Assembly (NCBI GenBank): GCA_034520965.1
Contig: JAXHMY010000009.1
Location: forward strand, 32,001 to 96,000
Direction of reading: 5' to 3'
From: Spirochaetia bacterium
GTDB lineage: Bacteria; Spirochaetota; Spirochaetia; DSM-16054; Sediminispirochaetaceae
DNA: 64,000 bases
Shown: piece after piece, positions 27,001 through 45,000 of the stretch
How positions within the stretch are numbered: the stretch's first letter is position 1
Layout of the letters: every line of letters starts with the position of its first letter
Made by a program: the position numbers

Positions 27001-30000
27001 AAATATCTTCGGCAAAACTGTGCTGGTGTGAACCGACGACAATTAGATCGGCCTGGTTTTTATCTGCAAGTTTATTGATTTTTTTGTGGACCGAACCTGT
27101 AAGAACTTCGGTGTTTACTTGAAACCCCTGTGCTTCAAGACTTTCTTTTTCGGCCTCGAGACTGTGCTTCAAAGTTGTTCCTTGATACGAATATGCCATG
27201 GACGCGGCGGTCCCCATGGACATACATTGCGTAAGTAGTGCTTTTTCGGTTCCAATAAATTTCAGAGCACCCAGACAATCCACGACTTCCTTGGATGCCG
27301 ATGAGACATCGGTTGCTACTATCATTGTATTAAACATAGACTCCTCCTGTTTCTATCGTATATGATAATATTAACATATAGTGGTAAGCTGTGAGTGTCA
27401 AGTGCTGTCTCAGGAATATCACTAATCTTGATGTTAATGTAACGTTCACTCCCGTTTTGTAAAAAAATTTTCTTGTTCAGTCTTGACAGTGTAAAATATA
27501 ATTACCATATTTCATGCATATGTGCGCATGTATGCATGTAATAATAGGTAAAGGAGAGTTGAGAACGTCGTGGGAGGCGTTACATCCAAGGAGAAGCAGA
27601 TGAACGAAATGATCGAGGTGTTCAAGGTCCTCTCTGATGAGACACGCCTACGTATTGTCCGTCTCTTTCTGCATGCAGAGGTCTCCCTCTGTGTGTGTGA
27701 GATTGTGGATGCATTAGGTCTGCCGCAGTACAAAGTCTCGCGGCATCTATCGGCCCTCAAAAACGCCGGATTGATGGATGCCACGAAAAAGGGGACCTGG
27801 GCCTATCACCAGTTAAAAGTCGATTCACCGCTCCTTTCAAAGCTATGGGAGTTCATCGGCTCTACCTCCTTGGATGAGGATGGCGAGCTGTTGCTGGAGC
27901 GTGACCGTGAGGTATTAGATTGGCGGCTGTCTCTGCGAGATAACGACATGTGTGTGGTTGGGCTCTCTCCCGGCACAGGGAAGGACGAAGCTGGGATGAC
28001 CGAAAATGATGAAAATAGAACGAAACAAAATGATAGATGAGCGACACGAAACAAAACGACTCCGCCGTCAAAATAGAGATTTTCGACCCGCCTATGTGTT
28101 GCCTTGGCGTAATATAAGGAGCGAATTCTTGCCGATGCCCGAGAGAAATACTCCGAAGACATGCTGATTGCGGTAAAAGAGGAGCTCGAGACACCCTGTA
28201 CGGAAGAGATGGCGGCGTTTGACAAGTTTATGTGGTACGTGGAAAGGGAGGCGTACCGGGCTATGGAAGATCTGCGGGCAGCGGGAATCGACACACAATT
28301 TGTGGTAGCAAACCAGGTGCTTGAAGAGGAGTATTGCAGCAACGACTTCTTCCGCAAGCGGCGTGCGATGCAGGAGAAATATCTATCTGAGATAAACCGA
28401 CTCTTTCAGCTGCCGGTAACGGTTATGCCGCTTTTTGAGACTGAGATCACCGGACTGGAGATGGTCGAGTGGGCTGCTGAGGCTCTCTTTGCGGGAGCCA
28501 TGGAAAAGACTTCACTATAGTTTCGGCTGTTGCCGACTCTATGTGTATAAAAGCGAGGAGGGAGATACGATGGAGCATGTAGTTAGAGTGTTCGTGCCTC
28601 CCCTGGGGGAGTGCGCGGGAAAAAATACCTGGGAAAAAGCCTTAGGGGTGGTGGAATCACGCTTACGCGAAAAACTGGAGTTCGAAGTGCGGTTCGAGAT
28701 AGTCACTCTTTTCAGTAAGGAATTCTTTGCCTACCCCGAGGTGGCATCACTCGTGCAGTCCGGAGAGGGAGAGCCGCCGATTGTGACTCTGGACGACCGA
28801 GTCATTCAGAGAGGAGGAAAACTGCGCGAACGGACTATCCGGGAGGCCCTGGAAGAGAATTTTATATAAGGTGAAGAAACTGTGTCCAATCTTGACGCAC
28901 GAGAGAAAGAGTTTGCAGAAGGAGTCGCCCAAACAGCGGAATACCACGAGTTTCAAACCGCTGTCGATGCGTATCACAAAGACGAAGAGGCTCTGGAGCT
29001 CTTGCAAAAGTTCCAAACGGCTCAAGAGCAAGCACAAAAGTTTGAGCCCTGGGGAGGGGGCTCAACTGGAGACGAAGAAGATCTGGAGACGCTTCAGGCG
29101 AAAGTGTTGGCACAACCGATGCTTGCCCGATACTTCAGGTCTCAAGAGACGCTTCTCCAGGCGCTCCAGGAGACCAACAGATATATGGCCGACAAGTTGG
29201 GGTTTGATTTTGCCGGGCTCACCAGACCAGCCGGTGGCTGTTGTTAAAGCTTCGAATAAAGAGGATGCAGTATGATTAGTAGAGAATTACAGAACACAGC
29301 GGACGCCTTGGTGACCGCATTAGAAAAAAACGAGAGCATTTCAGCTTATCAGGCGGCAAAACATCGGTCTGAGAAAAACGAGGAGCTCAAGCAGTTTCGG
29401 TCGAACTATTCCGAACTTCTGCCCGAACTCCAGCAAAAGCAAGCGGACGGAAGCCTCACGCAGGAGGACATTGGAAGCTTACGCTCCCTTCAGGAAAAAA
29501 TCAATCAACACCCGGCCTCTGTCGAATTACTTCGCACCTTGCAGGAGGCAACCCCGATACTGAAAGAGTGCAACAGTACGATAAGCCGGATCCTGGGATT
29601 CGACTTCTCTGCACACGCAGCTCCGCCTTCCGGGTGTTGTTAAAATTTACACAACGCTTAGCATAAATATCAGCAATTACGTAAGAGCGGGAATTTCCAC
29701 AGGCGGCGGGATAGCCGAAACTCAATCGACCGATTTGTCAGCTTTATCGAAGTGGGGTTCATCGAAGCTTTGCAAGCCGTCGCCGCGCTTCTGCATCGCG
29801 TGGATACACCGAACTATAGAGCGCGTGCAGCCGGGAACTGCGCTGTAGTAACGAAAGGTACCATCCTCCCGGCAGTGTAGTAGCCCGGCATCGACAAGAA
29901 CGTGTAGATGCCGGGAGAGGGTTGAGGGATCGTCACCCACCATTTCGGCTAAATGCATGACACTTTCCGGCTGATGGCTGACTCGATCGAAGACAAACAG

Positions 30001-42000: not shown

Positions 42001-45000
42001 CATATAGCTCGGGACCTCTTTGCCGGAAAAAACCACCACCCACAGTATTCACTCGGTTCCCCCGAAATCGGAGGAGAGGCGGAGTATGAGGTGCAGGACT
42101 CCCGCTCTCTCATGGATACGATTCGCCCGAGCACCGAAAAAACCAAGGCGATATTCTTTACCGGTAAGGGCGGCGTCGGCAAGACGGCAGTCTCCTGTGC
42201 TACCGCATTCGCCCTTGGGCGGGCCGGTTTCAAAACCCTCCTGCTGACCACCGATCCAGCCTCACATATCGGCCAGGTCCTGGAGCAGCCGGTGGGCGAT
42301 ACGATTACCGCTGTTAAGGATGCTCAGAATCTCGACGCAGTCATGATTGATCAGGAACAGGCGGTAATAGAGTACAAGGAGCGAATTCTTGAGGATGCAA
42401 AGAAGAAATACTCGGAAGATATGCTCCTGGCGGTTCGAGAGGAACTCGAATCTCCCTGTACCGAGGAGATGGCAGCCTTTGACAAGTTTATGTGGTACGT
42501 AGAAAAAGAGGAGTACGACATAGTTGTATTCGACACAGCTCCCACGGGGCATACATTACGGCTCCTTGAGCTCCCCTTCGACTACGCCGACCAGGTAGGA
42601 ATGATGGTCACCACCACCGGAGAAGGGAATACGGCTAAGAGCGAGACCCAGGCCCGGTTTGACCGAATTATTAAGCAAATGAAAGATCCCGAGCGCAGTG
42701 CCTTCGGTTTTGTTGTCTACCCGGAGTCGACACCCGTGGTTGAGGCGTACCGGGCTATGGAAGATCTGCGGGCAGCGGGAATCGACACACAATTTGTGGT
42801 AGCAAACCAGGTGCTTGAAGAGGAGTATTGCAGCAACGACTTCTTCCGCAAGCGGCGTGCGATGCAGGAGAAGTACCTGGGTGAAATCAATCGTCTGTTT
42901 AAGCTGCCGGTGACAATCATGCCGCTTTTTGAGACTGAGATCACCGGACTGGAGATGGTGGAACGGGGAGCCGATGCGCTTTTTGCCAACACAGCCGTAT
43001 CCTGCACTTAGAAGGGCCCGGATCGTGAAAATAATACATTTTATATGAGGAGAAGAAACTATGTCGAATCTTGACGCACGAGAGAAAGAGTTAGTAGCTA
43101 TTGGTGCCGCCTATGCCGGCAACTGCATCCCATGCATGGAGTATCATATACCTGCAGCCCGAAAGGCCGGGTTGACGGATGAACAGATTCAGGAAGCTAT
43201 CGAGCTTGCTGAAAAAGTGAAGCAGGTTCCGGCTAAGAAGGTGCTCGATACAGCAAAGTTGCTTATCGCGGGAGTCGGCGGCGGCATTAAAGTATAATGC
43301 TGCCGTCACGAAGAATTCATAGAAACAGGAGGATTAAATGGCTGAACAGACAAAAAATATAGATACACTTATCGCTGCGGCTCAGGAGTTTGCAGAAGGA
43401 GTCGCCCAAACAGCGGAATACCACGAGTTTCAAACCGCTGTCGATGCGTATCACAAAGACGAAGAGGCTCTGGAGCTCTTGCAAAAGTTCCAAACGGCTC
43501 AAGAGCAAGCACAAAAGTTTGAGCCCTGGGGAGGAGTTTCAACTGGAGGCGAAGAAGATCTGGAGACGCTTCAGGCGAAAGTGTTGGCACAACCGATGCT
43601 TGCCCGATACTTCAGCTCTCAAGAGACGCTTCTTCAGGCGCTCCAGGAGACAAACATCTATATGGCCGACAAGTTGGGGTTTGATTTTGCCGGGCTCACC
43701 AAACCAGCCGGTGGCTGTTGTTAAAGCTTCGAATAAAGAGGATGCAGTATGATTAGTAGAGAACTACAGAACACAGCGGACACCTTGGTGACCGCATTAG
43801 AAAAAAACGAGAGCATTTCAGCTTATCAGGCGGCAAAACGTCGCTCTGAGGAAAACGAGGAGCTCAAGCAGCTTCGGGCGACCTATTCCGAACTACTGCC
43901 CGAGCTCCAGCAAAAGCAAGCGGACGGGACCCTCACGCAGGAGGACATTGGAAGCTTACGCTCCCTCCAGGAACAAATCAATCAACACCCGGCCTCCGTC
44001 GAATTACTTCGCACCCTGCAGGAGGCAACTCCGATACTGAAAGAGTGCAACAGTACGATAAGCCGGATCCTGGGATTCGACTTCTCTGCACACGCAGCAC
44101 CGCCTTCCGGGTGTTGTTAACCACCGGTTTGGACGATACGTGTCTATGCCTGCAATAAAGCAGAATACCCGGGTGCGCAGATACGCGCGCCTTCTTGTAA
44201 AGGTGGCAGTGAACATTCAGCCGGGGCAGCGATTCACCATATGGAAGGCCCCGGTCGACGCTGCTCCCTTTGTGCGGATGCTTACCGAAGAAGCATATAT
44301 TGCCGGAGCCTCGTATGTAGATGTTTTCTGGCGGGACGATCACCTGGAATTGATCCGCCTCATGCGCACAGCTCCTTCGGTCTACACCGATCGCCCTGAT
44401 TGGGAAGTGACTGTTATGGAAAACTCGGCGAGACAGGGGGTGCATTTCTCTTTTTTGACTGCACCTGTGCGGGGGTCTTTGACAATACCCCAACGGCAAT
44501 GGTAGCCCGAGCGCTGGCATTGGAGAGCGAACATCTTCAACGGGTCTGGCAGTTTTTTGTGCGCAATACGGTCAACTGGTCAATTGCCACGGTTCCGACT
44601 CCAAGCTGGGCACACAAGGTGTTCCCGGAGCTCCCGGTCGAAGAGGGAATACAGGAGCTCTGGGAGACCATTTTTGTCACTTGTCGTATAGATACGGAGA
44701 ATTACGTTGAACGATGGGAGCGACACCGAAGCACCCTGGAGGATCGTAGTCGATTGCTCAATGATTTACGCCTTAGAGCACTCCACTTTGAAGGTCCCGG
44801 GACAGAGTTGAGAGTGGGGCTTCCCCGCGGTCACGTATGGCGCAATCCCGGTTTCGTGACGCAAGACGGAATACCCTTCATCGCGGATATCCCAATAGAA
44901 GAGGTGTTTACCCTGCCGCATCGAAATGAGGTGGAAGGCCATGTTCGTTCGACCAGGCCTTTTGTGGTGAACGGACGAACCGTCGATGATTTCACCCTGC

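Follow-up and report, generated by a model that had tools for sequence, protein, structure and literature searches.

Cysteine-tailed YlbF-family protein pairs in the ars operons of a spirochaete are probably a bacterial form of haloarchaeal HcsL-HcsS

Two adjacent genes of the YlbF family (PF06133), whose products end in vicinal cysteines, are members of arsenic-resistance (ars) operons in many bacteria, among them a Spirochaetia bacterium, where they lie in a 64,000-nucleotide stretch of contig JAXHMY010000009.1 (hereafter, the window). The pair is probably the bacterial form of the gene pair annotated in haloarchaea as hcsL-hcsS, and its products probably catch or pass on arsenite. Membership in ars operons, proposed in a preliminary description of this DNA, is supported by co-orientation and tight spacing, by recurrence beside one clade of the ATPase ArsA, and by a shared probable operator of the repressor ArsR.

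The window holds two such loci, left and right (Table 1). The four YlbF-family ORFs score 52–56 bits against PF06133 (cut-off 23.9) and all end in Gly-Cys-Cys-stop, as previously described, and the arsD-arsA genes (contig positions 72766–75011) and the arsA remnant (contig position 60161) already reported are both present. From arsD through YlbF protein 2, the genes of the right locus are separated by 14–49 nt; terminator-like matches number 3 against 5.6 expected by chance, one weak match lying near the end of arsA. The earlier statement that the pair follows arsA twice must be amended, because one gene intervenes at each locus (a CMD/AhpD gene on the right, a thioredoxin-fold gene on the left) and because the two pairs, with 96.2% DNA identity over 735 bp, count as one event. 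The copies derive from one recent duplication and, as near-identical duplicates, were rejected as independent evidence. Most of arsD and arsA has been deleted from the left copy, in which the start of the CMD/AhpD gene supplies the initial codons of YlbF protein 1; with this deletion and the frameshifts in arsR and in the M29 peptidase gene, the island is decaying. The broken locus has an Acr3 gene 2 kb to its left, and the ars loci of the window gave no match to ArsB.

Table 1. Genes and sequence elements of the two ars loci (window coordinates).
Feature	Position	Strand	Remarks
Left-locus palindrome ATGC-N8-GCAT, probable ArsR operator	27513..27530	.	conserved 5' of arsR genes elsewhere
ArsR repressor, C-V-C motif and C-terminal Cys	27570..28040	+	Pfam HTH_5; both motifs in 23/23 homologues
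arsD remnant, 32 bp, 81% identical to arsD start	28076..28107	+	sequence comparison
arsA remnant, second half only, internal deletion; ORF at 28161–28520	28113..28520	+	
YuzD/ArsD-like thioredoxin-fold protein, 99 aa, one conserved Cys	28570..28869	+	present in 13/17 related arsA loci
YlbF protein 1, left copy, ends GGCC	28882..29247	+	PF06133; start derived from CMD gene via deletion
YlbF protein 2, left copy, ends SGCC	29272..29643	+	PF06133
Same palindrome, three overlapping matches	40376..40407	.	directly 3' of promoter-like site 40348–40376
arsR remnant, frameshifted	40440..40706	+	
ArsD metallochaperone, C-C-x4-C motif intact	40766..41125	+	NF033727, 106.7 bits (cut-off 90)
ArsA, 623 aa, nearest to haloarchaeal clade	41140..43011	+	six metalloid ligands, conserved C243 and C564
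CMD/AhpD-family protein, 78 aa, CxxC	43061..43297	+	PF02627 and TIGR00778 above cut-off
YlbF protein 1 (HcsL-like), 128 aa, ends KPAGGCC	43338..43724	+	PF06133
YlbF protein 2, 123 aa, ends PPSGCC, RicA/RicF fold	43749..44120	+	PF06133
M29 aminopeptidase split over two frames (frameshift)	44140..45386	+	3' of pair in several relatives

The two YlbF proteins are paralogues (28% identical over 95 residues), both with the Com_YlbF fold, and probably form a heterodimer. Among 150 homologues, 9 are two-domain fusions, and the halves of one that was modelled (pTM 0.78) match RicF or RicA (Z 9.3, rmsd 2.7, 111 aligned residues; Z 9.1, rmsd 3.8, 113 aligned), although for helical proteins such Z values, close to 9, are modest. 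Foldseek returned no match at E 0.001, its top ten rows being RicF, RicA and DUF964 proteins; with protein 1, an Atlas structure search found nothing above TM 0.42 and a word-based homologue search only two near-identical proteins. Prediction of a complex of both proteins with ArsA gave no usable answer (score 0.00, mark 0.32) and speaks neither for nor against contact.

A cysteine lies within the last 12 residues of 142 of the 150 homologues listed for protein 2, exactly as first described; a terminal CC was counted in 41 rather than the 68 first given, for which the other protein may have been the query, and a CC within the last 15 residues in 71, all these counts being favoured by a CC-ending query. 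Within 5 kb of ArsA, CC is found on 24 of 25 proteins of the first type and a single Cys on 16 of 19 of the second, so that three thiols are what the usual tails beside ArsA supply and a CC/CC pair is exceptional; none of the 16 CxC-tailed proteins lies within this distance, and a CoaC-like decarboxylase gene occurs 3' of the pair only where the second protein ends in one Cys. A quick tree, built on few columns and with many open forks, separates the tail-less proteins (support 96) but needs 10 changes to account for linkage to ArsA, and thus delimits no single ars-specific clade and supports no order of events. Among YlbF loci of the same phylum, 16 that are tail-less show neither ArsA nor the palindrome, and ars genes and palindrome alike are missing from two pairs with CC tails (L085, L090); a cysteine tail alone was rejected as a mark of an arsenic role.

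The palindrome ATGC-N8-GCAT, which is probably the ArsR operator, occurs at 5 sites in the window against 0.82 expected. It lies upstream of 17 of 23 arsR homologues, a count that is no independent test since the palindrome was derived from arsR upstream regions. What is new here is its presence, against a background of 0.003 per 350 bp, directly 5' of four units led by ylbF or fmdB-ylbF and separate from arsA (L011, L088, L017, L020). In G051, a 99%-complete genome in one contig that gave no ArsA match, the palindrome stands 5' of acr3 as well as of ylbF1-ylbF2-arsR-usp, the predicted operator being thus shared with a pump gene; a second genome with no ArsA match (G878) also retains an operator-led pair. 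Taken together, these sites probably place the pair in the arsenite regulon and argue that it is not an obligate partner of ArsA. It is highly probable that ArsR binds at the operon and that arsenite induces it.

In the window ArsA, residues C114, H146, C172, S438, C440 and H471 align with the metalloid ligands of 1F48, and the six are invariant in 15 of 15 sequences. We take their equivalents in the R773 numbering to be Cys113/Cys172/Cys422 and His148/His453/Ser420. As the protein keeps all six, it was rejected as a Get3-type ATPase unconnected with arsenic, which removes an earlier worry about the breadth of the Pfam family. The window ArsA is 45–48% identical to haloarchaeal ArsA, compared with 35–38% to the Bacillus type; its best family is ArsA_halo (NF041417), which it matches at 677.7, below the cut-off of 800, and it scores 494.8 against TIGR04291 (cut-off 650). 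The available text of PMC12415280 confirms the three Cys positions of R773 ArsA and describes As(III) as held by three cysteines in ArsA, and in ArsD by Cys12, Cys13 and Cys18.

The sample examined for recurrence covered a single class, another phylum, haloarchaeal plasmids and metagenome contigs. ArsA accompanies 13 of 27 metagenome pair loci, and all 10 of those with at least 2 kb upstream, the query having been built from ArsA-linked proteins and many matches coming from few datasets. The preliminary description had called the proteins recurring ArsA partners: they do recur beside ArsA, but of the 11 further genomes of the class that carry the pair, 6 lack an ArsA of this clade, and no arsA was seen in 9 of 13 pair loci within the stretch examined, 8 of the 13 (an unbiased class sample) lying outside ars-type operons. 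Conversely, among 17 close arsA loci the pair is present in 7 and was not seen in 10 within the available stretch, 5 of these with at least 3.8 kb downstream; L098, L099 and the Alicyclobacillus locus also have arsA and no pair. In the phylum of the Nitrospirae record, 1 of 151 genomes carries the pair, adjoining a ZIP transporter.

From the genes, fold, tails, operon context and conserved palindrome observed here, we tentatively favour, at slightly less than an even chance, the reading that the pair forms a RicAF-like heterodimer for the binding and relay of As(III). The two proteins, expressed from an ArsR-repressed, arsenite-induced operon, would assemble into a RicA/RicF-type helical heterodimer, the C-terminal tails of which would offer thiolates to As(III), at least three of them: the CC of protein 1 plus the final Cys of protein 2. 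The dimer would act as a soluble arsenite buffer and relay, exchanging As(III) with ArsD and this ArsA clade where they are present and acting beside Acr3 where ArsA is absent. That the tail ligand is As(III) is an evenly balanced proposition, and direct contact of the pair with ArsA is possible but rather doubtful. In RicAF, according to the accessible part of PMC6751060, the C termini exit from the dimer at opposing faces, so for three thiols to share one site, a tetramer or a partner may be required.

The main rival is a role in Fe-S metabolism, raised as a caveat at the outset and serious, if somewhat unlikely. The tails would here provide three of the four ligands of a cluster, the fourth coming from a third protein (the one-Cys thioredoxin-fold protein, a CC-tailed zinc ribbon or the RicT that the host encodes), and the pair would carry, protect or rebuild clusters under arsenite stress. 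The part of PMC6751060 available reports a [4Fe-4S] cluster bound by the RicAF tails with an identical 2+1 arrangement, through RicF C134/C146 and RicA C141, with RicT C167; the same text gives RicAF alone a content of just 0.23 Fe per dimer. Other Cys-tailed pairs lie 3' of ApbC (L036, L086), within an ABC-ATPase/SufBD run (L083) and 3' of RACo (L076, L077), but the ApbC-linked pairs, unlike the ars-linked ones, have CxC tails and no palindrome, and the haloarchaeal core consists of arsD-arsA-hcsL-hcsS alone, with no constant third protein. Also on the side of this role, ferredoxins and Fe-S molybdoenzymes are abundant in the island.

An improbable alternative, implied by the title of the preliminary description, makes the pair the missing downstream partner of ArsA, this clade passing its As(III) to the YlbF tails rather than to ArsB. 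It would account for the coupling of hcsL to arsA in 8 of 8 haloarchaeal loci (5 without a pump in the stretch examined), for the absence of YlbF genes from the four classical arsA loci examined, and for the pair in 5 of the 7 further genomes of the class that have this ArsA, against 0.19 expected (kin that are not independent); Halobacterium NRC-1, moreover, is sensitised by deletion of arsADRC and not of arsB, as stated in the available portions of PMC1447603 and PMC3600143. However, an operator-led pair persists in G051 and G878, where no ArsA match was obtained; two of the five co-occurrences (G853, G858) involve a CxC-type pair far from arsA; and the thioredoxin-fold gene is a steadier neighbour of arsA (13/17) than the pair (7/17). 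In a wider and still less probable version, this distinct ArsA clade, from haloarchaea to spirochaetes, would have exchanged ArsB for a RicAF-derived soluble acceptor, a YlbF heterodimer whose tails would be loaded with As(III) at the expense of ATP, for storage or transfer to Acr3 or ArsM; in one branch a dedicated CoaC paralogue would decarboxylate the single terminal Cys of subunit 2 to a cysteamine (pantetheine-like) thiol arm, a CC tail serving instead where the enzyme is lacking, as in the window. Our searches found no paper tying an ars operon to phosphopantothenoylcysteine decarboxylase and arsenite.

It is very improbable that the pair serves as RicA/RicF for a RicT-only host, enabling RicT/RNase Y-type RNA processing under arsenite: the host, in which a search showed no housekeeping YlbF, does encode RicT, as do 17 of 20 relatives, and RicA and RicF are required for RicT to join RNase Y (PMC10245838, available text), but ricT is in none of the pair loci scanned for it, and none of 16 genomes of the same family yielded the pair, although most of them have RicT where tested. 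Least probable of all is that the genes are passengers uninvolved in arsenic handling, for which the decaying island, the codon differences between the copies (13 non-synonymous, 13 synonymous) and the patchy presence beside arsA might speak, against retention beside arsA from spirochaetes to haloarchaea with invariant tails and of the operator where the pair has moved away.

Should the favoured arsenite-relay reading be true, the RicA/RicF scaffold, known from an Fe-S-bearing RNA-maturation factor, would have been reused in metalloid defence, and inventories of arsenic resistance would gain one more gene pair. The pair could also explain why Halobacterium NRC-1, a genetically tractable host, needs arsA but not arsB. 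Since the haloarchaeal link is already annotated, the surprise is limited. The pair was first presented as undescribed, which holds for the literature: in open-access text (supplements and subscription papers could mention them) no paper was found joining YlbF with arsA, searches for halo-CC-star HcsL/HcsS (NF041416) gave only unrelated acronyms among the matches listed, and the available part of PMC6016940, which mentions YlbF and arsenic, makes no link between them. It does not hold for databases, as NCBIfam/RefSeq name the haloarchaeal proteins HcsL (NF041416) and HcsS (NF041415), "halo-CC-star", beside ArsA_halo.

In haloarchaeal plasmids the order arsD-arsA-hcsL-hcsS, with overlapping stop and start codons, is found in 8 of 8 examined, and on pNRC100 of Halobacterium NRC-1 hcsL and hcsS lie directly 3' of arsA. 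The window shares with them two co-oriented Cys-tailed genes after arsD-arsA, and its protein 1, like HcsL, is a YlbF-family protein ending in GGCC (tblastn identity 29–32% over 91–100% of protein 1). Compared by family names and cut-offs, the copies of protein 1 score 62.5 and 60.5 against HcsL and those of protein 2 34.4 and 34.5 (cut-off 140), whereas true HcsL scores 150–157; protein 2, a full 123-aa YlbF, has no NF041415 match at E 0.01, while HcsS has about 60 aa and is a weak match (22–30 bits to profile A1). The missed HcsL cut-off and the full-length second subunit mark the window pair as a bacterial variant of the haloarchaeal one, from which it also differs in its bacterial host, in the gene between arsA and the pair, and in the zinc ribbon, thioredoxin-fold protein, CoaC-like enzyme and M29 peptidase added in its relatives. 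As in the ArsD-ArsA system of E. coli R773 (PDB 1F48; 9NBL), the ArsD C-C-x4-C motif and the six ArsA ligands are kept, vicinal CC being an As(III) motif; the window differs in the additional conserved C243 and C564 of ArsA and in the lack of an ArsB match. With RicA (YmcA) and RicF (YlbF) of B. subtilis (PDB 6PRK, 6PRH, 2PIH), the pair shares the fold, the two paralogues and flexible C-terminal tails that bear cysteines, often 2+1. The functions of RicAFT are in RNA maturation and development, and the papers found ascribe to it no arsenic role; the window pair differs in being two adjacent genes of a patchy island operon, with tails of about 10 residues bearing vicinal CC, and in being unlinked to the ricT gene of the host, RicT being common in relatives without the pair.

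The window's arsenic island carries two related ars loci, whose features are collected in the table. In the preliminary description the YlbF pair follows arsA twice; with 96.2% identity across 735 bp, the left and right pairs are one duplication rather than two recruitments, and the opening codons of the left YlbF protein 1 are those of the CMD gene, with a short repeat at the junction.

Features of the two ars loci, by position in the window
Locus	Feature	Position
Right	arsR remnant	40440-40706
Right	arsD	40766-41125
Right	arsA	41140-43011
Right	CMD/AhpD gene, 78 aa	43061-43297
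Right	YlbF protein 1, C-terminus GGCC	43338-43724
Right	YlbF protein 2, C-terminus SGCC	43749-44120
Right	M29 aminopeptidase gene with frameshift (after YlbF protein 2)	
Left	arsR	27570-28040
Left	arsD remnant, 32 bp, then arsA remnant (after arsR)	
Left	Thioredoxin-fold gene	28570-28869
Left	Second copy of the YlbF pair (after thioredoxin-fold gene)	

Between the loci (31014-38170) lie two divergent xanthine dehydrogenase-family molybdoenzyme sets, and such a set also occurs near the YlbF pairs of another genome, G712. In a low-GC stretch, genes for a SigZ-like sigma factor and an ArsP permease are followed directly by one (39825-40013) for a 62-aa protein that has an internal GGCC and no family match. 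A 1443-bp tandem duplication (48517-51391, 97.6% identity) takes in a rhodanese gene together with some of a CCG-domain gene. The minus strand at 29722-30770 encodes a family-less Cys-rich protein of 120 aa, a ferredoxin and an ArsR, a trio found again near the related ars loci L016, L024, L062 and L066.

Counted from the ArsA side, YlbF genes stand at 7 of 17 close arsA loci (of the 10 without them, 3 have less than 1 kb downstream and 5 have at least 3.8 kb), and both a thioredoxin-fold gene (13/17) and a zinc ribbon gene (10/17) are more constant. A frequent third Cys-tailed gene behind arsA (L012-L028, L054-L084) encodes a CC-tailed zinc ribbon of FmdB type (25/29 rows); the window's island has none. 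Counted from the YlbF genes, for which the query was biased, ArsA is found at 13 of 27 metagenome loci and at 10/10 of those with at least 2 kb upstream. In 400 further class genomes, a sample free of query bias in which related genomes are not independent, the pair occurs in 11 (13 loci), this ArsA clade in 7 and both in 5. Three of these 13 loci lie inside arsA operons, two head ylbF1-ylbF2-arsR-usp operons, one belongs to a run of ABC-ATPase and SufBD genes at a distance of 3.8 kb from arsA, two follow ApbC, three follow a 2-oxoacid dehydrogenase operon and two have unrelated neighbours. A search of 16 genomes from the same family did not find the pair. As controls, 16 tail-less YlbF loci, picked out of 72 other genomes matching in a phylum search, showed neither Cys tail nor ArsA, and four classical arsA loci showed no YlbF. 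Other classes of the phylum (L038-L053) have tail-less YlbF genes, one or two in number and not linked. At L037, L087 and L089 CxC-tailed pairs stand behind a 2-oxoacid dehydrogenase E1/E2 operon; lipoamide enzymes are arsenite targets, but no operator turned up at these loci.

The palindrome YATGY-N8-RCATR, a probable ArsR operator, precedes both window loci (5 sites in the window vs 0.82 expected) and is present at 17 of the 23 arsR homologues from which it was derived; the C-V-C motif and C-terminal Cys are kept in 23/23 of the ArsR proteins. When tested elsewhere, it was found immediately ahead of the YlbF-led units L011 and L088 and ahead of fmdB-ylbF units separated from arsA (L017, L020), and was absent ahead of 9 non-ars pair loci, the background rate being 0.003 per 350 bp. 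The genome G051, a single contig, 99% complete, without any ArsA match, has 7 strict sites vs 5 with a reversed control, and among the 3 of the 7 that were examined, two stand before ylbF1 and acr3. The pair thus goes with the arsenite regulon also where ArsA is absent, with ArsR presumably binding the palindrome. One more palindrome (58840-58857) lies about 180 nt ahead of a minus-strand gene (57298-58659), the second in the window to resemble CoA-disulfide reductase, which is 71% identical in DNA to 23446-24810; another ArsR is encoded alongside.

Protein 2 is predicted to adopt the RicA/RicF helical form (mean pLDDT 94.8, final residues uncertain). Two-domain fusions make up 9 of 150 homologues, and because the predicted fold of one (pTM 0.78) has halves matching RicF and RicA, a heterodimer is favoured for the pair. 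In P0028 and P0095 the YlbF domain is fused downstream of another, which we take to resemble the TSCPD domain found at the C terminus of class II ribonucleotide reductases. The earlier claim that 142 of 150 homologues have Cys within the last 12 residues stands, and in the search made here 41 of the 150 end in CC. Within 5 kb of ArsA, CC is present in the tail of 24/25 first-type proteins and a single Cys in that of 16/19 second-type proteins; CxC-tailed rows are away from ArsA in 16/16 cases (counted without the loci of the host genome and one duplicate; some of the contigs grouped as "away" are short). The conserved minimum of the tails is three thiols.

As(III) is held by three Cys in ArsA and by Cys12, Cys13 and Cys18 in ArsD, according to PMC12415280. 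Together with the operator and the vicinal CC, these three-Cys sites suggest, tentatively, what the pair would most probably do: as a soluble protein, buffer As(III) and relay it. A strong rival is an Fe-S role like that of RicAF: in PMC6751060, RicF C134 and C146, RicA C141 and RicT C167 of B. subtilis ligate one [4Fe-4S] cluster, with the same 2+1 Cys pattern in RicF and RicA, and the two tails of the dimer exit on opposite faces. Against this rival, RicAF by itself took up almost no iron, ApbC-linked pairs carry different tails, and RicT, found in 17/20 relatives, is unlinked to the pair. RicT with Cys motifs (G000:C1:393047-393301 in the host genome, and relatives) occurs in 18 of 21 class genomes, in most of which RicA/RicF-type genes were not found. 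That the pair is a dedicated ArsA acceptor agrees with haloarchaea but not with G051, and is unlikely.

The window ArsA is alignable to the solved arsenite ATPase 1F48 across residues 7-609 and retains its metalloid ligands (C114, H146, C172, S438, C440, H471), unchanged in 15/15 aligned relatives. Each ArsA half has a symmetric extra Cys lacking in R773 ArsA, presumably placed as in the zinc site of Get3 dimers: C243, unchanged in both alignments, and its counterpart C564, present in 18/18 bacterial sequences and missing from 4 haloarchaeal ones. A split ArsA/Get3-like ATPase pair unrelated to the island (G000:C1:143494-144427) follows what we take to be cstA.

A standalone CoaC-like flavoprotein, not found in the window, is encoded directly 3' of protein 2 at 14/18 loci whose protein 2 has a single terminal Cys (L014, L016, L020, L024, L028, L054, L055, L057-L060, L067, L070, L083) vs 0/21 others (loci with at least 500 nt downstream; the rows are related to one another, which inflates the Fisher value). 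It retains the His, PAMN and ACG motifs, catalytic in CoaC-type enzymes, and is nearer CoaC than peptide decarboxylases. Its close clade (71-73% identity) occurs in 2/401 class genomes, behind the pair in both; as neither a CoaB domain nor a further CoaC was found there, it can have a non-canonical substrate or be the sole CoaC of both. It may decarboxylate the C-terminal Cys of protein 2 or just support CoA supply.

Of the closest arsA loci, 16/17 are Spirochaetota records, which points to a spirochaete host. The nearest plasmid-borne relatives of the window ArsA are haloarchaeal (45-48%, vs 35-38% for Bacillus types), and its top family is ArsA_halo (678 bits, below the cut-off of 800). Both YlbF proteins match HcsL, named "halo-CC-star protein", best in NCBIfam (62 and 34 bits vs a cut-off of 140), and tblastn with protein 1 gave 4 plasmid records, each hcsL. 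The order arsD-arsA-hcsL-hcsS, with overlapping stops and starts, was found in 8/8 haloarchaeal plasmids examined, among 25 rows listed for ArsA and including NRC-1 pNRC100; at 5/8 the examined stretch has no pump gene. In NRC-1, deletion of arsADRC causes arsenite sensitivity and that of arsB does not, as summarized in two reviews (PMC1447603, PMC3600143). A literature search returned no paper connecting YlbF proteins with arsA. HcsS, at about 60 aa and 22-30 bits against the YlbF profile built here, looks like a reduced second subunit. The window module is real, belongs to the arsenite regulon and is a bacterial variant of the curated halo-CC-star system, differing from it in a full-length second subunit and in scores that place its proteins outside HcsL/HcsS membership.
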